Program-made: the position numbers and the translations under genes
Shown: in pieces, positions 9,748 through 59,400 of the stretch
Layout of the letters: every line of letters starts with the position of its first letter
How positions within the stretch are numbered: the stretch's first letter is position 1
The notes under the pieces: generated by a model
What the model saw: the letters and a program-made list of their open reading frames with translations, nothing else
Databases searched by the model: none
Told to the model about the DNA's origin: nothing
Origin: Verrucomicrobiota bacterium
GTDB taxonomy: Bacteria > Verrucomicrobiota > Verrucomicrobiia > Limisphaerales > SIBH01
Assembly: GCA_038205745.1 (NCBI GenBank)
Contig: JBBRBM010000004.1
Location: 1,529-65,528 of the forward strand
Reading direction: 5' to 3'
DNA length: 64,000 bases

Positions 9748-11718
9748 TCACGGCTGGCGCGAACGCGGGTTCTGCATGAAGTAGAAATGGCCATCCTCCG
9801 CGCCGCCCAGGAAATCAGGAACGCCATCGCCGTCGAAGTCAGCGACCGCGGGGCTTACGTCGTGGCCTTCGATGTTCTGCTGCGCCAGTGAACCGGCGCG
9901 CTTGAAATACCATTTGCCATCGCGCGCATCGACCTGTTCCAGAAGATCGGCATTCGCCGAATTGAGCAGGAGATCGAACCGGCCATCGCCATTCCAGTCC
10001 GTCACGCACAGCTTGCGACGACCACTGCCGCCGGCGCGCTTGGTCGTGAGTTGCAGCGGCGCACCAGCTTCGTCCACGAACGCGCGACGCGGAGGCAGCA
10101 ACACGAGTTTGCCGTCACGGCGCGCGCGTTCGAAGAACGCGAGATAACCTTCGGTGTCGAGCACCGCGATGTCAGGCAGTCCGTCGTGGTTGAAATCGTA
10201 AACGAGCGGAGTCGTGCGCCATTGCGTGAGGAGTTCATTGCCATGCGGCCTCGCCCAACCCCACGCCAGAGTTTGTGGCGCGCTCGTCCACGCGACTTCG
10301 ATCGGCTGCGGAGGCGCGAGCTTCGGATTACTTCGCGGCCCGAGATTCTTCAGCCACTCGAGGCGACCGAGGATGGAGTTGAACACGATGTCGGGCAAAC
10401 CGTCGCCGTCCCAGTCCGCGACGTTCACCGTGGTGTAACCCCACTTGGCTTCCGCCGGACCTTGAATACTACCGTTCGTTCCCGCCATGACGCGGAACGA
10501 TTTGCCATCCACTTCGAGCCGGCGCGGTGCAGCCCACTTGGTCACTGCGACTTTCGGCCCGCTGAGATTTTCGAAGAACTCCATGTAGCCCGCCGTGTTG
10601 CCGCTGATGATGTCGAGATCGCCATCGCCATCCCAATCGACTACGAAGGGAGTGGCGAGCGCGCCGCATTTCAATTCGTCGGCTTCCTGTTTGAAGTAGC
10701 GCGGCGAAAGAAACATTGGCGCGTGATCCGCATCGCGCGTTCCGGTGTTCTCGATCAACGCGACACGGCCGTCCTCATCACCGACGATCAAATCGAGATC
10801 GCCATCGCCGTCCCAATCGAACGCGACGGGCACGATCATCTCCAAATCCATTTTGATGAGCTGGCGATTCGGATCGCGGAGTCGTTTGCCCGCCGCGTAA
10901 CGAGGTTGCTTACGCGTCTCGATGTTTTCGAAGTAAGTGAAGCCATCAACGAACTCGCCTGTGATCAGGTCGAGATCACCATCGCCGTCGAAGTCAGCGA
11001 AGTTCGGCGATGGGCAACCGAACACGTCCAATGGCTTGGCGCCGGCTTGCACGAGGAACGGCTTGGCATATTTCGGTGCGGCAGTGGTGTTCGTGTTGCG
11101 CAGCACGTAGATCACTCCGTGCAACGGGCCGTTGGTCCAATGTCCCGTGGCATCGTATGCGTTGTCCCAGCCGTAGTCCGCCCAGTCTTCAATCGCAACC
11201 GTGAGGTCGAGCGCGCCGTCGCCGTCGTAATCCACGAAGCGCCATTGATTGTGACGCGTCTTGAAGACGCCGGGCTTCGCGCCGAACTCGATGGTGTGAA
11301 TTTGCTTCGTTGGTGGCGCCGCAAGTTTCACCGGTCGATCCAATCCGCTGCGCAAAAAATCCGGATACTCAGCTTCAGGTGTGAGCACGCGCAACTTGCC
11401 ATCAACGTAACTCGGCGTCGCGTAATGCAGTGCCTTCCCGAGCCGTCGCGCTGCTTTGAACACCGGCATCTTGTTCGTGCGTGTCGAACCGCTCGTGTTC
11501 TCGAAAAACCGCACACCGTTGTACGGCTTGTCCGGGCACGCGACGATCAGGTCGTTGTCGCCGTCGCCATCCGCGTCACACGGAACCGGCCACGCCCAGA
11601 GTCCGACGCCGAGATCCACGACGAGACCCGGGTTGTTGTAGTGAATGCGCGTGAGGATTTCGGCGGCAGAAACACCGAGCGTCAGCGCGCCAATCACGAG
11701 AACCAGAAAACGTTTCAT
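9748..11718 (-). CDS. secreted FG-GAP/VCBS repeat protein
   Basis: Signal peptide MKRFLVLVIGALTLGVSAAE. Repeated DxDGDGDLD calcium-binding-type motifs (DWDGDGDLDL, DFDGDGDLDL, DYDGDGALDL). Confidence 0.8.
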   Translation of the reverse strand: MKRFLVLVIGALTLGVSAAEILTRIHYNNPGLVVDLGVGLWAWPVPCDADGDGDNDLIVACPDKPYNGVRFFENTSGSTRTNKMPVFKAARRLGKALHYATPSYVDGKLRVLTPEAEYPDFLRSGLDRPVKLAAPPTKQIHTIEFGAKPGVFKTRHNQWRFVDYDGDGALDLTVAIEDWADYGWDNAYDATGHWTNGPLHGVIYVLRNTNTTAAPKYAKPFLVQAGAKPLDVFGCPSPNFADFDGDGDLDLITGEFVDGFTYFENIETRKQPRYAAGKRLRDPNRQLIKMDLEMIVPVAFDWDGDGDLDLIVGDEDGRVALIENTGTRDADHAPMFLSPRYFKQEADELKCGALATPFVVDWDGDGDLDIISGNTAGYMEFFENLSGPKVAVTKWAAPRRLEVDGKSFRVMAGTNGSIQGPAEAKWGYTTVNVADWDGDGLPDIVFNSILGRLEWLKNLGPRSNPKLAPPQPIEVAWTSAPQTLAWGWARPHGNELLTQWRTTPLVYDFNHDGLPDIAVLDTEGYLAFFERARRDGKLVLLPPRRAFVDEAGAPLQLTTKRAGGSGRRKLCVTDWNGDGRFDLLLNSANADLLEQVDARDGKWYFKRAGSLAQQNIEGHDVSPAVADFDGDGVPDFLGGAEDGHFYFMQNPRSRQP

Positions 11719-46820: not shown

Positions 46821-49796
46821 TTACTGCGTCGAGATGAAGTAGAACTGGCGCGAAGCCGACGGTGCCCCAACATTGAAAATGCCGCTCGCATTCGTGAACA
46901 ACGAGCCGTTCACAACGCGGAACCTGTTCGTGATCTCTGTTGCTTGCCACAACGTCGAGACGTGCCCGGGTGTGGCCGGGAAAGTAATCAACGCCGTGTT
47001 GGTGACGACTGAGCTGGTGACGTCCGGACCGGCCACACTCGCAGGCGCCAGCGTGAACGCACGGTTGTCGTACTGCGCATTGGGAGACGCGAGGTTCGTC
47101 GAGATCCACTGTTGCGGCACAAACGGGCTGTTTAAGCTCGGGAAACGCGAGATCGAACTGCTCGTGCCAACGTCAGCGCCTTGGTAAACGACCCGCGTGA
47201 CCAGCCTGCCAGAAGCGTTCCGAAGTGCGACGGTTTCTGAGCCGGTGTTATTGAGCGACAACGTCGTCGAACTCGCAGATTGGCTCATGCCGGAGATGCC
47301 GGGATTGAATCCGTTCAGCGGTCCGCCATAGAGAATGAACGCGTTCGACGAAGGCACCGAAAAGAAGTCACCAAATTCGTGGCGCAACTGCACCGCGTCG
47401 TAAACGGTCCATCCGACGAAGTCCAGGGCGCTGGGTGAAAGGTTCACGACTTCGATGTATTCATCGTTGATCGAGAAGGAAGAAGCGGAGTTGGTTGCCC
47501 AGTCGGCGCTGCGCTTGAGCGGATTGAAATAGACCGAGTTCGTGGCCGTTGCCGGGTTCGCGAGAATTTCGCTGATGACCACCCCCTGCTCTGCGACCGT
47601 CGGCACGTTATTCGTCCAGTATATGTCTTTGGTGGTCGTGGCGTTGGCAACGGTGAGTCCGGGTGTGTACACGTTGCCTGCCTCTGCCCCGCTCGGCTGG
47701 AACGTGAAGGTCGCGGTGACATTGGTGCCAGTCGTCGCGCCGTAGCTCCATGAGGCAGTCGCAGGCAAGCCATTGGAAAGCGGCGTGATGGTGCCGCCGT
47801 CCGGATCGGTGACGCGCACAGTCATCGTGAGTTTCTCACCAGTACGGAGCGCGTTCTCAACGAAGATATTTGTCGGAAGGTCGCCGGGGCGAATGAGATT
47901 GGAGAGAAAGTTCGTAAAGCGAACCAAGGGAGCTTTTGAACTGCTGATCACTTCAGCATAGCGGCTCGGGATCAATTGATAGCCGCTGGTGCGGGGATTC
48001 GAGTTATCGAACTGGCCAAGCACGCCGAGGATCGTCACCGCGTCAGTGGGTTTCGATTGGCCGACCAGATCGGTCTGCGCATTGATGAACAAGGTGAAGG
48101 TCTGACCCGAGCTGTTGGTGACGAGATACGTCGCACCACTCGCAAAGGTCGGCACGGTCAGGTCGATAAAAACATTTGAAGCCACGACGTAGCTTCCTTC
48201 AAGCGGCTCCATGACAACGGGGTCGTTCTGCGACGCGAACGGGATGTTGATGGGGGCGGGAATCGGATTGTTGCTGCTAATCACGGAGACGCTGTGCGAC
48301 GTGTTCGTGTAGGTCAGTGTGAGTTCCAGCAAACCATTGAACTGCGTCAACGGGCCGGTCACGCGGACTCGATCGCCTGCGTGAGGCAAGGCATTGTCCG
48401 GTGCGCCAGACCAGAACACCGCGATGCCCGCCGTGGTGTCCTGCATGTAGAACAACAAGCTGCCGGTGCCAGTGAGCGACGCGTAGGTGGTCACGATGCC
48501 TTCAACCGTAAAGAGCGAAGTCGTGTTGGTGGGCGTGTAATTCACCATTTCCTGAAGCGAGCGCACGTAGGCGATGTTCGTTGCCGGAGGTGGAATGACA
48601 GTGAGCGTCGCCAACAGACTCGTTGCCGAGCCCACGGAGTTGGTGATAATGACGTAGTAGGCACCCGCATCATTTGTCGTGATGGAATTCAAGGTGAGGG
48701 CCGAAGCGGTGCTGGCAACGCCGCCAGTGGGATTAAACCAACGGTAGAAAAGCGGGGGTGTGCCGGTCACGCCCACGTTGAAAACAATCGTGTTGCCGAC
48801 AATGCCAGTTTGGCTCTGCGGTTGGTTGGTGATGCCGGGAGCCAGTGGCGTTTCGACCACCGTCAGGACGGCGACGCGGCTGGTCACTGTGTTGACGCTG
48901 TTGCTGACGATGACCGAGTAGTTGCCGCTTTGCCCCGCCGTAACGCTGTTGAGGACCAAGGTGTTGGAATTTCCACCGACGAGCGTGCTGGCGAAGAACC
49001 AGTAGTAACTCAAAGGATCATTGCCGCCGGCGATGGTCTTGAAGGTCACCGTCACACCCGCCGCCACGTTCGTGTCATTCGGCTGCACGGTGATGAACGG
49101 CGGATTCAAACTGCCGGGAACGACATCTGCGAACGTGGTACCAACGACGAGATTATCTACCGTCAGGATTCCTTCACCCGCGGCTTGGCGAAGGGCGAAG
49201 GACGTGACTGTGATGATGCCTGGTGCGTCGTTTCCCGTGGAGCCAGTCGAAAGTTCAGAGGACGGACTTAACCAGATCGTGCTGACGCCGGTTGCCAAAA
49301 TGTGTCGGATCACGATTCGGTAAGTCGTGTTCAGAGAGAGGTCGGTCAGGATGTTTGTTGCCGTTCCTGAGTTGTTGGCGATGCCGATCCGAAAAGAACC
49401 TGCGGTCGCACCTGTGAGATTTGCGAAAATGCGGGCGCGGAACCCTGTGGAGTTATCCTTGAAATGCGCGAAATAGGCGCCGCCGGACGTCGGTAACGAA
49501 GAGAAGTTGACGTCGAATGCGGCGTATAAGGCACCCGTCGAGCTTGAACTCGCGTAAGGGCTGTTCGTCAGTGCCGCGTTCACGTCATCGGCAAGACTTG
49601 CAGAAATTTGCGCCAATCCCGACGCAACGTTGAAGCCTGGTGTTGCGGCACTGCCGCTGTGCATGACCCATTTCCCAGCCGACACGTTCGTGAGCGGGCC
49701 GTATCCGTATGTGAAGCTTTCCTGAAGGATGATCGTGGCGCCCGCGCGGGTCAGGAACAACAGCGCGGCACAGAAGAGTGCGAGTTTCAGTTTCAT
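46821..49796 (-). CDS. large secreted protein with Ig-like domains and a lamin-tail-like domain
   Basis: Start moved to MKLKLALFCAALLFLTRAGA. Two Ig-like modules (..GNDPLSYYWF..SGNYSVIVSNSVN.. and ..PPLFYRWF..AGAYYVIITNSVG..). Lamin-tail-like segment VVISEILANP..NDEYIEVVN. Confidence 0.7.
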   Translation of the reverse strand: MKLKLALFCAALLFLTRAGATIILQESFTYGYGPLTNVSAGKWVMHSGSAATPGFNVASGLAQISASLADDVNAALTNSPYASSSSTGALYAAFDVNFSSLPTSGGAYFAHFKDNSTGFRARIFANLTGATAGSFRIGIANNSGTATNILTDLSLNTTYRIVIRHILATGVSTIWLSPSSELSTGSTGNDAPGIITVTSFALRQAAGEGILTVDNLVVGTTFADVVPGSLNPPFITVQPNDTNVAAGVTVTFKTIAGGNDPLSYYWFFASTLVGGNSNTLVLNSVTAGQSGNYSVIVSNSVNTVTSRVAVLTVVETPLAPGITNQPQSQTGIVGNTIVFNVGVTGTPPLFYRWFNPTGGVASTASALTLNSITTNDAGAYYVIITNSVGSATSLLATLTVIPPPATNIAYVRSLQEMVNYTPTNTTSLFTVEGIVTTYASLTGTGSLLFYMQDTTAGIAVFWSGAPDNALPHAGDRVRVTGPLTQFNGLLELTLTYTNTSHSVSVISSNNPIPAPINIPFASQNDPVVMEPLEGSYVVASNVFIDLTVPTFASGATYLVTNSSGQTFTLFINAQTDLVGQSKPTDAVTILGVLGQFDNSNPRTSGYQLIPSRYAEVISSSKAPLVRFTNFLSNLIRPGDLPTNIFVENALRTGEKLTMTVRVTDPDGGTITPLSNGLPATASWSYGATTGTNVTATFTFQPSGAEAGNVYTPGLTVANATTTKDIYWTNNVPTVAEQGVVISEILANPATATNSVYFNPLKRSADWATNSASSFSINDEYIEVVNLSPSALDFVGWTVYDAVQLRHEFGDFFSVPSSNAFILYGGPLNGFNPGISGMSQSASSTTLSLNNTGSETVALRNASGRLVTRVVYQGADVGTSSSISRFPSLNSPFVPQQWISTNLASPNAQYDNRAFTLAPASVAGPDVTSSVVTNTALITFPATPGHVSTLWQATEITNRFRVVNGSLFTNASGIFNVGAPSASRQFYFISTQ

Positions 49797-49840
49797 GATT
49801 CGTGAGTTTTTACGGTTAAGTGGGAAGCGGGAAGGTAACT

Positions 49841-50704
49841 TTAAAGATCGCGATTTGGGTTCCACCAAATGTCGCCGTTCAGCTTTTCGTCACGGATACA
49901 AGTGGGGTTCTTATTGAATACGTAGTCCCGATCAAATGCTGCAGAATGACCATCGAGAAAGACAAGGATTCCCCGGCCACTGTGACGTTTGGGAAAGTAC
50001 GCCCAACGAACGGCGGGCTGAATTCCGTTTTGATTTGGCGACGCTACGTAGTTTTCCAAACTCGGACTGAATGTCGTCTCCGTCAGAAGCACCGTTTCGG
50101 ATGGCCTCCGCATTGAGCCCAGCCGGGGCATGTTGGGATAAACCGCACTGTTACCGACCACGCCGTTGCAAACGCTACTGTTGAGCTTGAGATCGAGATT
50201 CAACGCGTAGCTAAAAAATCCAAACTTGCCATTCGCCAGGAACGTATCGCCGGAGGCTGCCTTTGCCGTGGGGCAATGCCACATATTCCCTATACCATTG
50301 CCCGGGAACGGCATCGAAAGACGGTAAGGCGGTGTCGCACCGTTAAAACTATTCGACAGCGGCCGGTCGGCGACATTCGGTGGAAGCTGATTGAACCATG
50401 CGTTGGCATCGTTCGGACTTCCGGGACCAGTTGTTGCACCGCTGAAGGCGGCGAACGAACCACTTGCATCCGTTCCATCGCGCGGAAGTGCGTCTTCGTT
50501 GTCAGTCGCGTGAAGATGCAGAGCAATCCCCCATTGACGCATGTTACTCAAACACTTCGTCTGTTGCGCTTTGGCCTTTGCCTTGGAGAGCGCTGGCAAC
50601 AGCAGCGACGCGAGGATGGCGATGATCGCGATGACGACGAGCAATTCGATCAGCGTGAATGCTGAACGCGAGCTTCGAGGGGCTTTGAAGAATTTGGGTT
50701 TCAT
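49841..50704 (-). CDS. DUF1559-type pseudopilin-like protein
   Basis: Start moved to [41 protein letters not shown]9-DG motif ([13 protein letters not shown]). Confidence 0.85.
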
Positions 50705-50900
50705 CTTCTGCGGGGACGCCACCGCACGGGCCTGCACGTAAACAAATTTCCAGTCCGAGGGCAAGGCGGGGTTCGGAAACATATTCGCAACGGATGTGTG
50801 AATAACTGCGAGCGGCATGTCCATCCAGATTTAGTACGTCTAGGTATTATCTGGTTGCGGGCCGCCTGACGCTGCCGGATAGTGCGGGCGCTTGGTAAGG

Positions 50901-52025
50901 ATGAGGAAACAACTGCTTGGAAGGTTTTCAGCCGCGCTCTGCTCAGCTGCGGCGTTGCTTTGCTTTGCCGCGTCCGCAGCGGATTGGCCGATGTTCCGCG
51001 GGTCGCCGTCTCTGGTCGGTGTCTCGGAGGAGAAACTTCCGGACAAGCTGGCGCTGCTTTGGTCGTTCAAAACGGGCGGGCCGGTCAAATCCTCACCCGC
51101 GATCGTGGGGGGAACGGTTTTCATCGGTTCGCACGACAGCAATCTCGTCGCGCTCTCGCTCGCGGGCGGAAAGCCGCTTTGGACTTTTCGCACGGGTGAC
51201 CAGATCGAATCGTCGCCGCTCGTGGTCGACGGGAAAGTCTTCTGCGGCGCGAACGACGGCACGCTTCACGCCGTGGATGCTAAGAGTGGAAAGTCGCTTT
51301 GGAAATACCCGACGGGCGACAAAATTCTTGGCGGCCCGAATTTTTTCCGTGACGGCAACAAGCTCTCGATCATCGTCGGCAGCTACGATCACCAACTGCA
51401 TTGCGTCGATGCGGCGACGGGCAAGAGCAACTGGGTTTACGAGACGGGCAATTACATCAACGGCTCGCCCGCGATCCTGAATGGCCAGACGGTGTTCGGC
51501 GGCTGTGACGCGATCCTGCACGTCATCTCGCTGAAGGACGGCACAAAGACCAAGGAGATCGATGGCGGCGCTTACATCGCGGGCTCCGTCGCGCTTTTCG
51601 ATAACAAGGCTTACTACGGTCATTACGAGAACGAGTTCCGCTGCGTGGATCTGGCGAAGGAAACGAATCTGTGGACGTTCAAGGATCGCTCGTTCCCGTA
51701 CTTTTCCTCGCCGGCGGTCACAAGTGATCGCGTCGTGTTCGGCGGGCGCGACAAGAAACTGCACTGCGTGAAGCGGGCCGATGGCGCGGAGCTTTGGTTC
51801 TTTCCCACGCGAGGAAAGGTGGACAGCTCTCCTGCGATCGCGGGCGACAAAGTTGTGTTCGGCTCGAATGACGGACGTGTTTACGTCGTGCGCCTGAGCG
51901 ACGGCAAGGAAGTGTGGAGCTACGAGATCGGCCAATCGGTCGAGAGTTCGCCCGCCGTTGCCGATGGAAGATTTGTCGTCGGGGCTGACGACGGGACGAT
52001 TTATTGCTTCGGAGCGAAGAAATGA
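50901..52025 (+). CDS. PQQ-like (BamB-like) beta-propeller repeat protein, secreted
   Basis: Signal peptide. Repeated ..A(V/L)D..(S/T)GK..W.. blades and DWPMFRG. The ATG at 50901 is preferred over the TTG at 50892. Confidence 0.75.
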   Translation: MRKQLLGRFSAALCSAAALLCFAASAADWPMFRGSPSLVGVSEEKLPDKLALLWSFKTGGPVKSSPAIVGGTVFIGSHDSNLVALSLAGGKPLWTFRTGDQIESSPLVVDGKVFCGANDGTLHAVDAKSGKSLWKYPTGDKILGGPNFFRDGNKLSIIVGSYDHQLHCVDAATGKSNWVYETGNYINGSPAILNGQTVFGGCDAILHVISLKDGTKTKEIDGGAYIAGSVALFDNKAYYGHYENEFRCVDLAKETNLWTFKDRSFPYFSSPAVTSDRVVFGGRDKKLHCVKRADGAELWFFPTRGKVDSSPAIAGDKVVFGSNDGRVYVVRLSDGKEVWSYEIGQSVESSPAVADGRFVVGADDGTIYCFGAKK

Positions 52026-52026
52026 G

Positions 52027-53376
52027 ATGAGCACAACCAGCGACATTCCGTTGCAGCGCACACCAGCGCCGCCGATTCAAAAGCAGACGACGGTCGGCAA
52101 CTACTTCGTCTCGAATTATCCGCCGTTCTCGTTCTGGAAGACGGAGGCGATTCCTGAGCTGGTGGACGCGCTGAATCGGCCGCCCAAGCCGGGCACACCG
52201 CTCGGCCTTTACGTTCACATCCCATTCTGCCGCAAGCGCTGTCACTTTTGTTACTTCCGCGTTTACACGGACAAGGACGCGTCGGCGATTCGCGCTTACA
52301 TCGACGCGGTCGTCAACGAGTTCACGCTGTATGCGACGAAGCCATTCATCGGTGGCCGCAAACCGAACTTCATCTACTTCGGCGGCGGCACGCCGAGCTA
52401 CTTGTCTGTCGATCAATTGAAACATCTCACCGGCGAAATGAAGCGGTTGCTGCCGTGGGACGAGATCGAGGAAGTCACGTTCGAAGCAGAGCCGGGCACG
52501 CTCACGGATCACAAGCTTGCGGCGATTCGCGAGCTCGGAGTCACGCGCCTGAGTCTTGGTGTGGAAAATTTTGACGACCACATTCTCGAGATCAACGGCC
52601 GCGCGCATCACTCGAAGGAGATCGCGCGCGCCTACGCTTATTCGCGCGAGATCGGCTTCCCTCAAATCAACATCGATCTCATCGCCGGCATGGTCGAAGA
52701 GACGGAGGCGAACTGGCGCGAGAACATCCGCCGCACCATCGACATGTCGCCGGACAGCGTGACGATTTACGAGATGGAGATTCCCTACAACACCACCATC
52801 TACAAACAGATGAAGGAGGAGGGTAAGCTCGCCGCGCCCGTGGCCGATTGGGACGTGAAGCGTCGCTGGGTGGACTACGCGTGGAACGAGCTGAGCAAAG
52901 CGGGCTACACGATTTCGAGTGCCTACACCGCAGTGAAGAATCCGGAGAAAACGAAGTTTATTTACCGCGACCGGCTGTGGGCCGGCGCGGATTTGCTCGG
53001 CATGGGCGTCGCGAGCTTTGGCCACATCGGCGGCGTGCATTATCAGAATCAGCACGACTTCGATCCTTACGTGGCGTCACTCCAACGCGGTGAGTTGCCA
53101 ATCCATCGCGCGCTGACGCCGTCGCTTGATGAGCGCTATATCCGCGAATTCATTCTCCAACTGAAGCTCGGAAAAGTGAGTCGCGATTACTTCACGAAAA
53201 AGTTCGGCACCGATCCATTGCAAACATTTGCCGCGCCGGTTCAGACATTGAAGGACTGGGGTTTCCTCTCCGTGGATGGTGATGCGATTCTCCTGAACCG
53301 CGAGGCGATGCTACAGGTCGATCGTCTGCTGCACGAGTTCTTCCTGCCGCAGCACAAGAACACGCGATACGCATGA
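52027..53376 (+). CDS. HemN-like radical SAM protein (coproporphyrinogen III oxidase family)
   Basis: CxxxCxxC cluster motif HIPFCRKRCHFCYF, and FGGGTPS. The start lies 1 nt after the upstream stop. Confidence 0.8.
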   Translation: MSTTSDIPLQRTPAPPIQKQTTVGNYFVSNYPPFSFWKTEAIPELVDALNRPPKPGTPLGLYVHIPFCRKRCHFCYFRVYTDKDASAIRAYIDAVVNEFTLYATKPFIGGRKPNFIYFGGGTPSYLSVDQLKHLTGEMKRLLPWDEIEEVTFEAEPGTLTDHKLAAIRELGVTRLSLGVENFDDHILEINGRAHHSKEIARAYAYSREIGFPQINIDLIAGMVEETEANWRENIRRTIDMSPDSVTIYEMEIPYNTTIYKQMKEEGKLAAPVADWDVKRRWVDYAWNELSKAGYTISSAYTAVKNPEKTKFIYRDRLWAGADLLGMGVASFGHIGGVHYQNQHDFDPYVASLQRGELPIHRALTPSLDERYIREFILQLKLGKVSRDYFTKKFGTDPLQTFAAPVQTLKDWGFLSVDGDAILLNREAMLQVDRLLHEFFLPQHKNTRYA

Positions 53377-53951
53377 GCACGCCGCCGAATCCAGACTCGG
53401 TGCTTCAGCCCGCGCGCGTGTTGCCATTCGCGTATCCGCTGGATGAATTTTACGCGCTGGCGAATCGCGAACTGCCGACGATCGAGCAAGTGCGTGGCGA
53501 TGAATTACCAGAGCCATGGCGCCAGTTGCTCGTTCATAACAACGACATGACGCCGACGCTGGAGGGCTTTTACGAGGACGATCTCTCCCTGAAAGTCCTC
53601 TCGCGCCATCATCGCGGCGATTTTTACTTCCGCGAAGTCGCGCTGTTGACGGGCAGGCAAAACAAGGTGGTCGAATTCGGCGCCATCAAAATCAATCTCG
53701 GCTTGTTTCCGTGCTCCGCGCGCCCCCGCATTTTGGAGGAGCATCAGCCGCTCGGCGGCATTCTTCGCGAATACAAAATTCCGCACAGCAGCCGGCCGAA
53801 GGCATTTCTGCGCCTGCGCTCCGATGCGTTCATCAACGGCGCGCTGGAGCTTCGCGGCCAGCATGTGCTCTATGGCCGCCGCAACACATTATTCGATCCG
53901 AAGCAGCGGTCGCTCGCTGAGATTGTCGAAATTCTTCCCGATCACCAATGA
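53373..53951 (+). CDS. chorismate-lyase-fold (UbiC/DUF98-like) protein
   Basis: LLVHNNDMTPTLEGFY...REVALL...PLGGIL follows the UbiC/DUF98 pattern. ATGA overlaps on both sides. Confidence 0.5.
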   Translation: MSTPPNPDSVLQPARVLPFAYPLDEFYALANRELPTIEQVRGDELPEPWRQLLVHNNDMTPTLEGFYEDDLSLKVLSRHHRGDFYFREVALLTGRQNKVVEFGAIKINLGLFPCSARPRILEEHQPLGGILREYKIPHSSRPKAFLRLRSDAFINGALELRGQHVLYGRRNTLFDPKQRSLAEIVEILPDHQ

Positions 53952-55258
53952 AGACGAACCCGCAGAACCACGACGTTTTGATCATCGGTGCCGGCCCGGC
54001 TGGGAGCAGCGCCGCCGCGGTGCTCGCCCAGCATGGCCATCGCGTGCTGGTGCTCGAACGCGAGAAATTCCCGCGCTACCACATTGGTGAATCATTGCTC
54101 CCGTTCTGTTACGGGCCCCTGCAACGGCTCGGGCTGATCGACAAGCTGAAGGCGTCGCACTTCGTGAAGAAGTACAGCGTCCAGTTCGTGTCGCCGAACG
54201 GGAAGGCGTCGCAGCCGTTTTATTTCTTCAACCGCTACGATCGCGAGACCGTCGCGCAAACGTGGCAAATCCTGCGTTCCGAGTTTGATCAGTTGCTCAT
54301 GGAAAACGCGCGCGGTCGTGGCGCAGAGGTTCTGGAGCAAATCACCGTTTCGGAGTTGCTGCGGGAAGGCGAACGCGTCGTCGGTGTTCGCGCGCGGGAC
54401 AAGGATGGAGTCGAGCGCGAATTCCGCGCGCCAATGACTCTCGATTGCACCGGCAAGGAAGCTTTCTCCGCCACGCGCAACAACTGGCGTTCACGCGACC
54501 CGTTTCTGAACAAGGTCGCCGTATGGACTTACTACAAAGGGGCAAAGCGCGACGAAGGCATTGATGAAGGCACCACCACCGTCGCGATGGTGCCGGAGAA
54601 AGGCTGGTTCTGGTACATCCCGCAGCACGACGGCATGGTGAGCGTCGGCATTGTCGCGGAAGGCAAATATCTCGCGCGCGACGGCGTGAAGGACTTGAAG
54701 CAAATCTTCGATCGCGAAGTGAAGCAGAACCGGTGGGTGGAAGAACACCTCGCGTGCGGCCAACAGATCGGCGACTACCGCATCACGAGCGAGTATTCGT
54801 TCCACTCGCGCCACTGCGGCTGCGAAGGATTGTTGCTCGTGGGTGACGCGTTCTGTTTTCTCGATCCCGTCTTCAGCAGCGGTGTCATGCTGGCGCTCAA
54901 GAGCGGAGTGATGGCCGGAGATGCAGTCCATGCAGCGATCGTCGCCAAGGACTTCTCGTCCGAGCGTTTCACCGAATACGCGGCGCAGCTTCGCCAGGGA
55001 ATCGAGAACATGCGCAAGCTGGTGTATGCGTTCTACGACGAGAATTTTTCGTTCAAGAAGGTGATCGACAAATATCCAGAACTGGCCGGCGACATCACCG
55101 ATTGCCTGAGCGGCGATGTGAACAAAGATTTCTCACGGTTGTGGAACGCGATTCGCGAGTTTGCGCCCGTGCCGGATGATTTGCCTTACGGTGCGCCACA
55201 AAGTGGCCCCGGCATCCTGCCGGGTTCACGCGTGACAGAAAAAGCAGCAGCAGTGTGA
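53948..55258 (+). CDS. flavin-dependent halogenase-like FAD protein
   Basis: GAGPAGS, FPRYHIGESLLP, the WxWxIP signature (GWFWYIP), and FLDPVFSSGV. About the last 18 codons and the stop lie inside repeat R-B copy 3. Confidence 0.7.
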   Translation: MKTNPQNHDVLIIGAGPAGSSAAAVLAQHGHRVLVLEREKFPRYHIGESLLPFCYGPLQRLGLIDKLKASHFVKKYSVQFVSPNGKASQPFYFFNRYDRETVAQTWQILRSEFDQLLMENARGRGAEVLEQITVSELLREGERVVGVRARDKDGVEREFRAPMTLDCTGKEAFSATRNNWRSRDPFLNKVAVWTYYKGAKRDEGIDEGTTTVAMVPEKGWFWYIPQHDGMVSVGIVAEGKYLARDGVKDLKQIFDREVKQNRWVEEHLACGQQIGDYRITSEYSFHSRHCGCEGLLLVGDAFCFLDPVFSSGVMLALKSGVMAGDAVHAAIVAKDFSSERFTEYAAQLRQGIENMRKLVYAFYDENFSFKKVIDKYPELAGDITDCLSGDVNKDFSRLWNAIREFAPVPDDLPYGAPQSGPGILPGSRVTEKAAAV

Positions 55259-55304
55259 GGGATGGAATCTGGTGAGTTCCCACCCGGCAAGATGCCGGGG
55301 GCAC
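55203..55304. repeat. palindromic repeat family R-B copy 3
   Basis: GTGGCCCCGGCATCCTGCCGGG ... CCCGGCAAGATGCCGGGGGCAC. Confidence 0.75.
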
Positions 55305-55364
55305 GTGATGGCGGAAGCCGTTTTACTTGGAGACTCCGCGGCGCTGTCGTAGGATGCTCGACCG

Positions 55365-56312
55365 ATGGAAGCATTGCCAAAGCCGGATGTGATTCTCACT
55401 CACGAGAGTGATCTCGATGGATTTCTGTCCGGACTTCTTTTGCGCCGCCTGGCCAAAAACCTGTTCGGCCAGGACGTGCGACTCGAGGCGTATCATTACC
55501 AGGCGTGGAAGATGCGCGACCTGCGCGAACGCTCGGCATGGGTGACGGACTTCAGCTTCGATGCACGCCTGGACAAGCCGGACTGGGTCATCATCGATCA
55601 TCATCCGACCGACGTCGTGCCGCAGCATGCGAGGTTGATTCACGATTTGCACAAGTCCGCCGGCACTCTCTGCTACGAATTGTGCGGCGCGCATGGGATT
55701 CAATCACCGGCGCTCGATCGACTCGTGCAGTTGAACAATATTTCCGACCTGTTCCTCGATGATGATCCCGAGTTCGTCGTGGCCGGCGATTACGCGAACC
55801 TGGTGAAGACTTACAACTTCTGGAACCTGCACGCCGTCCTCGGCGGCGACGTGGAGAAGCTTGTGGATCATCCGCTCCTGGAAGTCATGGCCGTGAAGCG
55901 GCGCGTTGAAGATCCCATTGGCTTCGAGTGGAGCCGGCGCAACGTTGTGGAACTCAGCTCGACGGTGGGCTTCGTCGAGACGGTTGTCGGCAACACGAAT
56001 CTCATCGTGCATCAATTGCTCGATTCGAAAGCCACGCCGTATTCGGTGCTCATCACGCTCTTCAAGAAGGCCAACAACCAGATCATCGTGAGCTTGCGCA
56101 GCCGCAATGGCGAAGCGCTGAAGCTCGCCACGCTGTTGCAAGGCGGCGGCCACGCGAACGCCAGCGGCGCCGTGTTGCCGCGCTCGGTGCGCAATCTCGA
56201 CGACGCGATCGATTACATGAAGCGGGTGCTCAATCCCGGCAAGGCGGCATCAACAGCAGCCTTCAACAGCCTCGAAGGCGCGTTCGCCGCGCTGGAATTG
56301 CCGAAGCAGTAG
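55365..56312 (+). CDS. DHH/DHHA1 family phosphoesterase (NrnA-like)
   Basis: HESDLDG, IIDHHP, GGGHANASGA. Confidence 0.8.
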   Translation: MEALPKPDVILTHESDLDGFLSGLLLRRLAKNLFGQDVRLEAYHYQAWKMRDLRERSAWVTDFSFDARLDKPDWVIIDHHPTDVVPQHARLIHDLHKSAGTLCYELCGAHGIQSPALDRLVQLNNISDLFLDDDPEFVVAGDYANLVKTYNFWNLHAVLGGDVEKLVDHPLLEVMAVKRRVEDPIGFEWSRRNVVELSSTVGFVETVVGNTNLIVHQLLDSKATPYSVLITLFKKANNQIIVSLRSRNGEALKLATLLQGGGHANASGAVLPRSVRNLDDAIDYMKRVLNPGKAASTAAFNSLEGAFAALELPKQ

Positions 56313-56327
56313 CGTCCGCCGCTGAAC

Positions 56328-56416
56328 GTGCCCCCGGCGTCTCGCCGGGTGGGATCGTTGGCGGTCGAGCAGCACCACGGCTGCAACTCCGCAGCCCGGC
56401 AAGATGCCGGGGGCAC
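56328..56416. repeat. palindromic repeat family R-B copy 4 (intergenic, between convergent genes)
   Basis: GTGCCCCCGGCGTCTCGCCGGG ... CCCGGCAAGATGCCGGGGGCAC. Confidence 0.8.
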
Positions 56417-56418
56417 GC

Positions 56419-59400
56419 TTATGGCGTGATGCCGCGATAGAATCGGTTCGAGTAACTGCTGGTGTTCGGGTCGGTGATCAACACGGGCGAGACCGGACTC
56501 ACCACGTTCGTGAACGTCGCCCAATTCGTCAGGTTCGTGGATGCCTGAACTTGATAATTGAAATTGGGCGTCAGCGAAACGGTCATGCGGAACAGGCCGT
56601 TCGAATGATACATCGGCGCGATGAATTGGAGCGGGCCGCCCATTCCCGGCGGGCTGCCGGGCAAGCGATCCAGAAACGGCACCTGTTCCGGTGTGAACGC
56701 TTGATCGTAGAGGCGGATGCGCGCCACGGAGCCGGCGGAATTCTCCCCCGAATTGTCGATGAAGAAACGAATGCGGTTCGTGAGGCCGCTGATGACGAGG
56801 TACTGCGAATTATCCGGCGTCGCGAATTGCTGCACCCCGTTCACGTAGCCGCGCACGAAGTTCGTTTCGTCTCGCGTGAGCACCACTTGCACGTAGTTGC
56901 TCGCGGCGATGGATGGACTGGAAGCATTCGCCACGGGATAGAAATAGGTGCGTCCATCCAGAACGTATAAACCTCCTTCGCTCGCGGGATTCTTTGTGTC
57001 CACGACGCGGCGATAGCTGTTTGTCGCATCGAAACGGAACAACAGCACCATCGACCAGACATTGCTCGGGATGGTGTTCGTCGTCGGTTGAAGGAACACG
57101 CCGTTGCCGAGCGGGAAGCGATACACCGCGCGCGCGAAGCCATCGACGATTTCGCTCTGGAACGAATTGCCCGGAGCAACATTCTGCAAATCCGGCGGCG
57201 TGCCGACGGAGCTGGCGAGCGTGGTCTGGAAACGATAGTCCGCGTTTGGCAACGCCGGGTTTACGCCGAAGATTGCGTTCACGGTCTTGTTCGTCGTCAT
57301 CGTGACGTTGAGCGGCGTGTTGGTGCGAGTCGCGTCGCCGCTCCAGCCAAGGAACACGTAGCCGACGTCAGGCGCCGCATTCAGCGCCACAACGGTGCCA
57401 AGCGTGTATCGAGGTGTGCCGAGTGGATTGCTTGTGACCGTGCCGTGGGAATACACGAGTGTGAGCCGCGCCTTGAACGAAACTTTGTTCGTCGGATTGG
57501 TCGCGTCAGCATTTTCCTCGGCGTTCGTGATCCCGTCGCCATCGGGATCGCCTGCGCCGTTTTGCGAATAGGTGTTGCCGAAGTAAGTGAGTTCCCACGC
57601 GTCGGCCAAGCCGTCTCCGTCATTGTCGTCGGTCGCGGCGTTGCGCCCATCCATACGGAAGCTGAACGGTTGAGCGATGGCAGACGTGTTCGTGACGAGG
57701 AGGAAATACATGTAGTTCGGCTGCCAAGGCCAGTAGTTGGGCGTGCGGAGGTAAATGTTGAACGACGTGTTCTGCTGGCCGATCCAGTAGTTGTGGTTCG
57801 CGGTCGTCGGTGTGGGCGAGCTCCCCTGTTCGAGATAGAGATTCACCGCGTTGGAATGAATCGCCTTGTGAATCCAGCGATACGCATCCTCCGGAACGTC
57901 CACGCGGAATTTCATGGCGGTGAATGGCGGGATGACATTGGTGGTGAAACCGCCGTAGAACGGAATCAAGTTCGTGTAATTGATCTGCGGAGGATTCGTG
58001 CTCGAACTGACGGTGAAGGTCGCATCGCTCACCGCGCGAAAGCCGATGTAGTGGGGCGTGCCGGGGCGCACGGGCGGGTTGGTAAACGTGTACGTGCCCT
58101 GCGGATCGAAACTGGGATACGGCCCGTGGTTCTTCTGGTCGTTGTTCCAGTCGTGCGCATCACGCCCACATTATTCGTGGGCACCACGACGGCGTAGTAA
58201 TGGAAATTCCCCTGCTCAAGATCGATGCCTTGATCCAGCGGCAGCGCGATGCCATTTGTGTCCACGCCTGTATCGCCGAAGAGCGGCCCGGTGGGCGGCA
58301 ATCCCGGCGTGTTGACGGACTGGCCGATCATCGGCATCTGCCAGGCCATCCCTTCCAGCTTCAATCCGCTGCTCACGAGCCGGAAGCTGGTGGTTCCCTT
58401 CGCCTTCACTTCCACGAACCAGGTTCCAGGCGTGAGATAGGTGGGAACAATTACCGCTTCGCCCTGCGCATAAGGTGACGTGCCGCCATTATAGTTGTCA
58501 TCCGGCAGGATGTCCTTGCGCACGCGCACCGAAGGTGTGCCCGTCGTCTGTGAGAGATCGAGTTTCCAGCCGATTACCGGAGCGCCTTCGAAATTCGTCG
58601 GAACGATCACCCTGTAATAAGCGCGCGCCTGGTCCGCGAGCGTGTTGCTGGCGACATTCGAGAAGCCATTCGTGTTGAACACGGCGTCGAAGTAATAAGC
58701 GCCAACGTTCGGGAGATAGTCCTTCTGCACCATCATCAACGCGTCGCCCACGCCAGTCGCGAGGCGCACTTTCCAGCTCGGCATGTTGCTCGGGACATTG
58801 ACGGAATAAAAAGCGATGTCGCGGGCGGGCAGGCCCGTGTTCGTCGCCAGACCGCCGGCGAAAGGAATGTTCACGATCGGAATCGAAAGGTTCGTCCCGA
58901 TGCCGCGGCTGGCGAGCGTGTAGCTCAGCGGGGCCGCGCCACTCCCAGCGATCACGCCAATGTAGTAAAGGCCCGGCTCCAGCGGATTACCCATGCCCAG
59001 TTGCATGACATGGCCGTATTCGTTCGCGCCGTTCGTCCCGTTGAATCCAGTCCAGTCGTAGGTCGCACCAAACTGGTAGCCCGTGGGCCAATTTGGCGAA
59101 CTGTTGTAGTACCAGTAGCAACACGGATTATCGATGTGGGTGTAGAGCGCGTCCGGCAAGACCGCGCGGCGCACGCTCATGCGAGGATCACCACTGGTGA
59201 CGTTGGTCAGGCGCAAGTCCCAGCCGAAGGCGTTGCTCGGAACATTGATGATGAAATACTGCCAGTCGCTGGCGGCCTGGCCGGCGATGGGCACCGCTCC
59301 GCCATCAAACGCCACAGGAATGGTGCCGAGCGCGTGAACGCGCACCGTGTAGCTGGCGTTCGAGTAGCCGCTGACATACGCCGCTGCGCTCACGGTCAGG

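Follow-up and report, generated by a model that had tools for sequence, protein, structure and literature searches.

We analysed a 64,000-nucleotide stretch of DNA from a soil or freshwater Verrucomicrobiota bacterium of the Limisphaerales (contig JBBRBM010000004.1; hereafter the window) and concentrated on four consecutive plus-strand genes, G1 to G4, at positions 50901-55258. An earlier note, made from the sequence alone, had described them as a tightly packed operon. G1 (50901-52025) is predicted to encode a secreted PQQ_2/BamB-type beta-propeller of 374 amino acids, G2 (52027-53376) a HemN-like radical S-adenosylmethionine (SAM) enzyme of 449 amino acids, G3 (53373-53951) a chorismate-lyase-fold (UbiC/DUF98-like) protein of 192 amino acids and putative 4-hydroxybenzoate synthase, and G4 (53948-55258) a flavin-dependent halogenase of the CndH/CmlS/PltA type with 436 amino acids. 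The open reading frame coordinates and the junctions, which we read directly, agree with the described packing: one nucleotide separates G1 from G2 (TGA-g-ATG, 52023-52029), and ATGA overlaps join G2 to G3 (53373-53376) and G3 to G4 (53948-53951). The intergenic gaps on either side of the operon measure 76 and 106 nucleotides, and the guanine-cytosine content is uniform over the region.

G4 qualifies as a flavin-dependent halogenase by every sequence criterion. It matches the Pfam family Trp_halogenase at 112 bits, and a search of the PDB retrieved halogenases with E-values from about 1e-64 to 1e-37 (8zop, 7e-64; CndH, 2e-62; PltA, 1e-50; CmlS, 3e-48). The geranylgeranyl reductases, which the earlier note had named as the competing identity, are far more distant: the best structure of this type, digeranylgeranylglycerophospholipid reductase, reached 2e-18, and the score against the GG-red-SF model (127 bits) is under its cut-off of 158.8. 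The NCBIfam model of CmlS gave 223 bits, short of the equivalog cut-off of 900; G4 is therefore no orthologue of CmlS. It also scored 141 bits against the QhpG model (cut-off 240) and matched models of the LodB/GoxB cofactor-maturation monooxygenases (94 and 88 bits).

The residues expected of a halogenase are in place. The catalytic lysine of these enzymes is K79 in PrnA and K76 in CndH. In the HMMER alignment the latter is equivalent to K75 of G4 (codon at 54170-54172), which answers the check for this residue suggested in the earlier note. The two signatures that had first pointed to a halogenase, GWFWYIP (WxWxIP; 54602-54622, residues 219-225) and FLDPVFSSG (Fx.Px.Sx.G; 54857-54883, residues 304-312), were located as described. 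Together with the GxGxxG motif that binds flavin adenine dinucleotide (FAD) (GAGPAGS, residues 14-20, conserved in all orthologues compared), these features are each at least 98% conserved among 62 orthologues, and all four are kept in orthologues from Pyrinomonadaceae (Acidobacteriota), Calditrichota and a marine lineage. G4 shares the FAD and halogenase motifs and the catalytic lysine with the variant-B halogenases CndH (3e1t; 38% identity over 362 residues), CmlS (3i3l) and PltA (5dbj). The substrate of CndH is tethered as a thioester, and its 4-hydroxyphenyl ring is chlorinated next to the hydroxyl group, in the ortho position. G4 differs from these proteins in its shorter C-terminal region (436 amino acids against 512-591), in having no carrier protein, nonribosomal peptide synthetase or polyketide synthase nearby, and in its partners, a chorismate lyase and a HemN-like enzyme.

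G2 had been assigned to the HemN family of radical SAM proteins, and its matches to Pfam Radical_SAM and, weakly, to HemN_C are in line with this. From its sequence it is a full-length HemN-like enzyme of an uncharacterised clade: residues 43-377 align with Escherichia coli HemN, the PDB search retrieved HemN (1olt, E = 1e-35) and NocN (7e-26), and the conserved CxxxCxxC, YVHIPF and GGGTPSY motifs are present, with GVE in place of GVQ. The cluster motif CRKRCHFCYF (52228-52257, plus strand) carries a phenylalanine where HemN has a fourth cysteine (CxxxCxxCxC). Among 75 orthologues this motif is conserved to at least 98%, and the orthologues from Pyrinomonadaceae and the marine lineage carry it unchanged. 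None of the curated NCBIfam models reached its cut-off: HutW (TIGR04107) scored 186 against 400, hemN (TIGR00538) 185 against 325 and HemW (TIGR00539) 172 against 205. Across three lineages (window, Acidobacterial and marine) the hemN scores span 185-204 (195-204 in the orthologues alone) and those for HutW 180-191. One relative (locus L009) encodes a bona fide HemW (238 bits against the cut-off of 205) shortly after the end of the cluster and on the strand opposite to it (10043-11407, minus strand). Because G2 falls below the cut-offs, lacks the fourth cysteine and can have this separate HemW nearby, it appears to be neither HemN nor HemW.

Class C radical SAM enzymes add one-carbon (C1) units to sp2 carbons of aromatic or quinone rings (PMC10114718). 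G2 shares with members of this class (MenK/MqnK, TbtI, NosN/NocN and ChuW) the HemN-like architecture, the CxxxCxxC and GGGTP motifs and the absence of the fourth cysteine. It nevertheless falls outside all characterised class C clades, every curated model being under its cut-off, and its genomic partnership with a halogenase and a chorismate lyase is new to the family.

The evidence on G3 comes from structure prediction and profile alignment; a sequence search of the PDB returned noise only. A confident AlphaFold (AF2) model built from 38 homologues (predicted local distance difference test score of 92.6) has the UbiC/DUF98 fold: the best Foldseek match was the DUF98 protein AF1396 (2nwi, E = 2e-8, TM-score 0.63-0.77), followed by UTRA domains and E. 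coli UbiC entries (E-values of 6e-4 to 9e-4; 1g1b, 6e-4). Alignment with hhalign to a provisional UbiC query sequence paired the blocks DMT, YxRxV, PLG and YGR, with LLVHxxDMTPTLE opposite LLLEDSMTKRFE and YxRxVVL opposite WLREILL. Residues M59, R87 and E186 of G3 are invariant among the 38 diverse homologues and appear to stand opposite Met34, Arg76 and Glu155 of UbiC, the glutamates being paired by eye just past the aligned block; in UbiC these residues bind the product, Met34 through its backbone. Several members of the G3 family, which comprises 1443 clusters at 50% identity (E ≤ 1e-3), are annotated by the Joint Genome Institute (JGI) as chorismate-pyruvate lyases. The UbiC/DUF98 pattern proposed earlier for G3 holds in fold and motifs, and escapes detection by the Pfam and NCBIfam hidden Markov models (HMMs).

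In Pfam, G1 matches only the generic repeat families Beta-prop_ACSF4 (202 bits) and PQQ_2 (166 bits), and a Sec signal peptide is predicted at residues 1-26, with a cleavage site inferred from the sequence between ASA and AD. About eight roughly evenly spaced tryptophan positions are conserved among 66 sequences, which by eye corresponds to about eight repeats. The NCBIfam scores lie below the cut-offs for BamB (TIGR03300; 134 against 285), pyrroloquinoline quinone (PQQ) alcohol dehydrogenase (84 against 480) and acido-empty-quinoprotein (56 against 650). The earlier description of a PQQ-like propeller is therefore right as to the PQQ_2 propeller and needs correction as to its type: the protein looks like a secreted propeller of the PQQ_2/BamB type, not a PQQ dehydrogenase.

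To learn how widely these genes travel together, we scanned genomes, one per species, and metagenomes. The diverse 38-sequence alignment of G3 held no block conserved enough for the genome scan, which used a closer set of G3 sequences and was thereby confined to the Limisphaerales; its 80 loci all come from metagenome-assembled genomes of the Limisphaerales/Pedosphaerales type. G2 precedes G3 in every one of the 75 loci whose sequence extends far enough upstream, G1 precedes G2 in all 65 visible cases, and G4 follows G3 in 64 of 74. The order G1-G2-G3-G4 is thus retained in about 80 Limisphaerales species, and the gene-neighbourhood analysis proposed in the earlier note found it conserved in relatives. 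The metagenome scan used the DNA of the clade-specific G2 motif FCRKRCHFCYF and was blind to context. Among the 74 informative loci (at least 0.7 kb visible downstream of G2), 36 have G2-G3-G4, 22 have G2-G4 without room for G3, 10 have G2-G3 and six G2 alone. Hence, G2 lies directly upstream of G3, G4 or both in 68 of the 74 (92%), with orthologues that are 47-78% identical to the G2 of the window. G1 was found upstream of G2 at 40% identity or more in 29 metagenome loci, the marine lineages having 41-48%. The version without G3 belongs, by NCBI label, to Pyrinomonadaceae (Acidobacteriota). In three marine contigs a G3::G4 fusion protein (P0133) immediately follows the G2 orthologue, and G3-G4 pairs without G2 also exist, for example in Calditrichota. 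Chance falls far short of explaining an order that recurs in about 80 species-level genomes and most of 120 metagenome loci. The module is conserved over at least two, and probably three, bacterial phyla. Its recurrent link to secreted PQQ-type propellers lacks an explanation and could indicate a function in the envelope.

The operon is repeatedly split in relatives by unrelated inserts, with the order G1-G2-G3-G4 unchanged (L003, 4967-6619; L008, 3552-6456; L009, 6280-7994; L011, 9997-13902; L016, 9644-13531; L029, 5839-8004; L078, 5900-7987). Among the inserts are an Mrr restriction-like gene with a DUF433/DUF5615 toxin-antitoxin pair, a PIN-domain gene, a YhcG-like PDDEXK nuclease, an S10 peptidase, beta-helix proteins of about 700 amino acids and coiled-coil proteins of about 1300 amino acids, and the intergenic junctions look like insertion hot spots. 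Some Limisphaerales-like contigs bear implausible titles such as Klebsiella, Bifidobacteriaceae, Akkermansia muciniphila or Chitinophaga pinensis and are probably mislabelled bins (L006, L014, L017, L019, L027, L033, L040, L050, L057 and L060).

Clustering of all open reading frames neighbouring the module revealed a set of accessory genes. Downstream of G4, many Limisphaerales loci carry a GT4 glycosyltransferase, a 4HBT hotdog thioesterase, a small EamA-like membrane protein, a PaaK/FlxY-like aryl-coenzyme A (CoA) ligase, and a LolD-type ATPase with an FtsX/MacB permease. The thioesterase, the EamA-like protein and the ligase also accompany the G3-G4 pairs that lack G2. One protein, P0238 (L088, 3244-5366), fuses a G3-type domain to a 4HBT hotdog thioesterase, with a PaaK-like ligase after it and a 1011-residue FtsX permease before it. 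Acidobacterial loci have this membrane protein, ligase or thioesterase, plus MacB-type permeases and many PQQ_2 propellers. For example, eight PQQ_2 paralogues surround the G2-G4 pair on a 7.49-Mb contig of a complete Pyrinomonadaceae genome (L217, 1-21314), together with a Na+/H+ exchanger, a CarboxypepD_reg outer-membrane barrel and an EamA-like membrane protein of 149 residues. The Acidobacterial propellers have Sec signal peptides and are only 23-27% identical to G1. The idea of a small self-contained four-gene pathway was therefore only partly right: the gene identities stand, and because the module is larger in relatives, with ligase, thioesterase, glycosyltransferase, membrane protein and exporter, we favour CoA-tethered tailoring followed by export.

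In seven metagenome-scan loci (L106, L109, L118, L121, L123, L153 and L210) an iron-containing alcohol dehydrogenase lies upstream of G1/G2, with an aldehyde-dehydrogenase-like gene beside it in at least L106, L109, L118 and L210. These genes hint that the aromatic acid may be reduced to an aldehyde or alcohol in those lineages. Ser/Thr protein kinase genes occur near the module in a marine lineage (L085, 5559-6530) and in an Acidobacteria-like one (L174, 1-2689), which may be coincidental.

Taken together, the observed gene identities, signature residues, fold, fusion and synteny suggest that the operon forms the core of a conserved small-molecule pathway, not described so far, in which a 4-hydroxyphenyl carboxylate is tailored, a reading to which we give a probability of about 45%. 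The substrate, the positions modified, the order of steps, the C1 transfer by G2 and any role of G1 are inferred. G3 would convert chorismate to 4-hydroxybenzoate and pyruvate. G4, as a two-component enzyme of the CndH type, would draw on FADH2, O2 and halide and place the halogen on the ring in the position ortho to the phenol. In lineages with an aryl-CoA ligase and a hotdog thioesterase the substrate would probably be a CoA thioester, as for CndH-type halogenases. If it acts as class C enzymes do, G2 would then alkylate an sp2 carbon of this ring with a C1 unit derived from SAM, either methyl or methylene. After its release the product, possibly glycosylated by GT4, would be exported by the EamA-like membrane protein or the MacB/Lol-type ABC (ATP-binding cassette) system to the envelope, where the secreted propellers reside. 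On this view the operon would make a halogenated, C1-modified hydroxybenzoate. The product from chorismate or hydroxybenzoate suggested in the earlier note, halogenated, C-methylated or both, accords with the gene identifications, with the qualification that chorismate is not universal and that the product and the part played by G2 are both putative.

Several observations weigh against this interpretation. G3 gave no match at E ≤ 0.01 to any Pfam or NCBIfam HMM, the curated chorismate-lyase models included, and its hhalign comparison with the provisional UbiC sequence, at E = 1e-4, had a probability of only 57%. G3 is missing from the Pyrinomonadaceae version, where another phenolic substrate is possible; because the Acidobacterial module has no chorismate-lyase gene, chorismate is not a universal entry point. 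Within Pyrinomonadaceae G2 is 88-95% identical, and conservation this high would suit a core function better than ordinary secondary metabolism. The HemN-like/class C family has no diagnostic sequence signature (review PMC10114718), and the chemistry proposed for G2 is a guess by family analogy because nothing of this kind separates class C methyltransferases from other HemN-like functions. Finally, the 64-kb window encodes no flavin reductase, ligase, thioesterase or exporter: a tblastn search of it for the GT4, 4HBT, ligase, EamA-like and ABC genes found none, and neither the operon nor its flanking genes include a recognisable flavin reductase. Partner flavin reductases are often not encoded beside halogenases of the G4 family.

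The logic of a chorismate lyase that feeds a halogenating enzyme has precedents. Bmp5 is a single-component decarboxylating brominase. In the Bmp6/Bmp5 pair of Pseudoalteromonas and in the planctomycete pair BaaA/BaaB, as proposed for our operon, a UbiC-type lyase stands beside a flavin-dependent halogenating enzyme and 4-hydroxybenzoate is the halogenated ring. BaaA and BaaB, a proposed chorismate lyase and flavin brominase for 3,5-dibromo-p-anisic acid, come from the same superphylum (Planctomycetes-Verrucomicrobia-Chlamydiae, PVC) as the window organism, and BaaB was reported to be Bmp5-like, at about 44% similarity (bioRxiv 10.1101/723874). G4, in contrast, appears to be a two-component halogenase of the CndH type (lysine, WxWxIP, Fx.Px.Sx.G), a class other than the Bmp5-like flavoenzymes, and both of these pathways are without a HemN-like enzyme, propeller, CoA ligase or thioesterase. 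The early steps of ambigol-type halogenated hydroxybenzoate pathways use a chorismate lyase, an adenylating enzyme, a carrier protein and a halogenase. A similar set occurs in locus L091 (2327-14416), where a distant G3 homologue accompanies an AMP-binding, adenylating enzyme, a 90-residue carrier protein, two halogenase paralogues, an MBOAT acyltransferase and an ABC transporter; the halogenases share no more than 32-34% identity with G4. This locus looks like a separate halogenated-hydroxybenzoate pathway, and its gene set implies that the G3 family feeds halogenase pathways. The window operon differs from it in having neither carrier protein nor adenylating enzyme.

Biogenesis of quinohemoprotein amine dehydrogenase involves the radical SAM enzyme QhpD, the flavoprotein QhpG, the propeller subunit QhpB and the exporter QhpF. 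The combination of a radical SAM enzyme, a flavoprotein with the fold of flavin-dependent halogenases, a periplasmic propeller and an ABC exporter resembles ours. However, G2 is HemN-like and not of the SPASM type, the operon has no QhpC-like peptide gene, and nothing in the Qhp system corresponds to G3, the ligase or the thioesterase. We also considered MenK-like methylation of a benzoquinone derived from 4-hydroxybenzoate, as in quinone biosynthesis, and set it aside: no prenyltransferase or UbiD/UbiX-type enzyme was found among the annotated recurrent neighbour families, although not every neighbour was scanned. A survey of quinones mentions no halogenase or HemN (PMC13386864). Our literature searches retrieved no description that joins a chorismate lyase, a flavin halogenase and a HemN-like or radical SAM enzyme, nothing on PDB entry 8ZOP and nothing on flexirubin clusters with the gene set of the operon; the combination, which the earlier note did not recognise, matches no pathway in these searches. 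What is already known are the enzyme families and the lyase-halogenase logic. What is new is the G2 clade, its obligatory pairing with a halogenase and the context of propeller and exporter.

Other functions for the same genes have to be weighed against the tailoring of a hydroxybenzoate. G2 and G4 might build an exported redox cofactor, a hydroxylated or quinone-type aromatic compound for the secreted PQQ-type propellers, with G4 acting as, or also as, a hydroxylase. The propeller link does recur in two phyla, from the constant position of G1 upstream of G2 in all visible Limisphaerales loci, through its 41-48% identity in marine lineages, to the eight paralogues that flank the Pyrinomonadaceae pair; exporter genes travel with the module, G1 weakly matches the acido-empty-quinoprotein and PQQ-dehydrogenase models of NCBIfam, and G4 matches those of QhpG and LodB/GoxB (141, 94 and 88 bits). 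We consider this explanation unlikely. At 374 residues, G1 has the size of BamB and is far under every quinoprotein cut-off, PQQ_2 proteins are very numerous in these phyla and the Acidobacterial ones share only 23-27% identity with G1. Moreover, the halogenase-specific lysine and WxWxIP motif of G4 are kept in all lineages, and the halogenase scores are much higher. One could also imagine, at a speculative extreme that we hold to be quite unlikely, that the HemN-like enzyme and the halogenase cooperate in new chemistry, for example a cryptic halogenation that prepares an aromatic carbon for C1 addition by the radical SAM enzyme. This would yield an exported aromatic cofactor or envelope component on which the function of the secreted PQQ-type propellers depends; such propellers, which would be 'empty quinoproteins' where the organism makes no PQQ, abound in Verrucomicrobiota and Acidobacteriota.

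Public records label G2 orthologues as coproporphyrinogen III oxidase, which raises the question of whether G2 works in the heme pathway, as a coproporphyrinogen dehydrogenase or as a heme-degrading methyltransferase like ChuW, and whether the operon merely mixes unrelated housekeeping functions. Its best NCBIfam matches are indeed HutW and hemN, the alignment covers residues 43-377 with E. coli HemN, and a TonB-dependent-type outer-membrane barrel adjoins the module in Pyrinomonadaceae. Yet the scores stay at 185-204 bits against 325 for hemN and at 180-191 against 400 for HutW in all three lineages, the fourth cysteine is absent and GVE replaces GVQ. The context does not fit either: 92% of the G2-clade members adjoin G3, G4 or both, the neighbourhoods have no recurrent heme-uptake or tetrapyrrole genes and no chuX/chuY/hutX-type neighbours, and a ligase and a thioesterase are unfit partners for heme chemistry. 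We thus find a heme-related role very unlikely, and ChuW-like heme degradation by G2 was rejected on HMM scores and gene context. Post-translational modification of a protein by G2 and G4, be it the propeller or another secreted protein, as with QhpD/QhpG or with the halogenases and methylases of ribosomally synthesized and post-translationally modified peptides (RiPPs), seems to us highly improbable. It would suit the finding that no other pair is as constant as G2-G4, which is also present where G3 is missing, as well as the matches of G4 to the QhpG and LodB models and the linked propellers and ABC exporters. Against it, the propellers bear Sec signal peptides, G3, the aryl-CoA ligase and the 4HBT thioesterase indicate a small aromatic acid, and the flanking gaps (76 and 106 nucleotides) and the overlaps inside the operon leave no room for a precursor-peptide gene. 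The RiPP reading was rejected for this lack of space.

If the operon does tailor a hydroxybenzoate, abundant and mostly uncultured bacteria of soil, freshwater and the sea (Limisphaerales, Pyrinomonadaceae and others) would carry a dedicated and strongly conserved route to halogenated aromatics. For soils, it is still mostly unclear which organisms give rise to natural organohalogens (PMC4926216). On the same condition, a new functional clade acting on a defined small substrate would join the HemN-like family, and its chemistry could be tested directly. The orthologues listed as 'oxygen-independent coproporphyrinogen III oxidase' or 'tryptophan halogenase', which number at least in the hundreds and probably in the thousands, would be misannotated, and such misannotations would distort reconstructions of the heme pathway for these phyla.

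Within the window, a scan of the operon region found no promoter-like site and terminator-like sites around the operon are at chance level, so that its boundaries are set by spacing only. An Rfam scan of 49500-56800 gave no element, with a single sub-threshold match to GlmY (E = 0.25) that we regard as noise, and PADLOC assigned the operon genes to no known defence system. The flanking genes are unrelated to the operon. Upstream, on the minus strand, are two genes typical of PVC bacteria, for a DUF1559 prepilin-type protein (49841-50824) and for a secreted protein of 1015 residues with Ig and lamin-tail domains (46821-49868). A DHH/DHHA1 phosphoesterase follows directly downstream, and LexA, a HAD hydrolase, large secreted proteins and RNase PH are encoded farther away.

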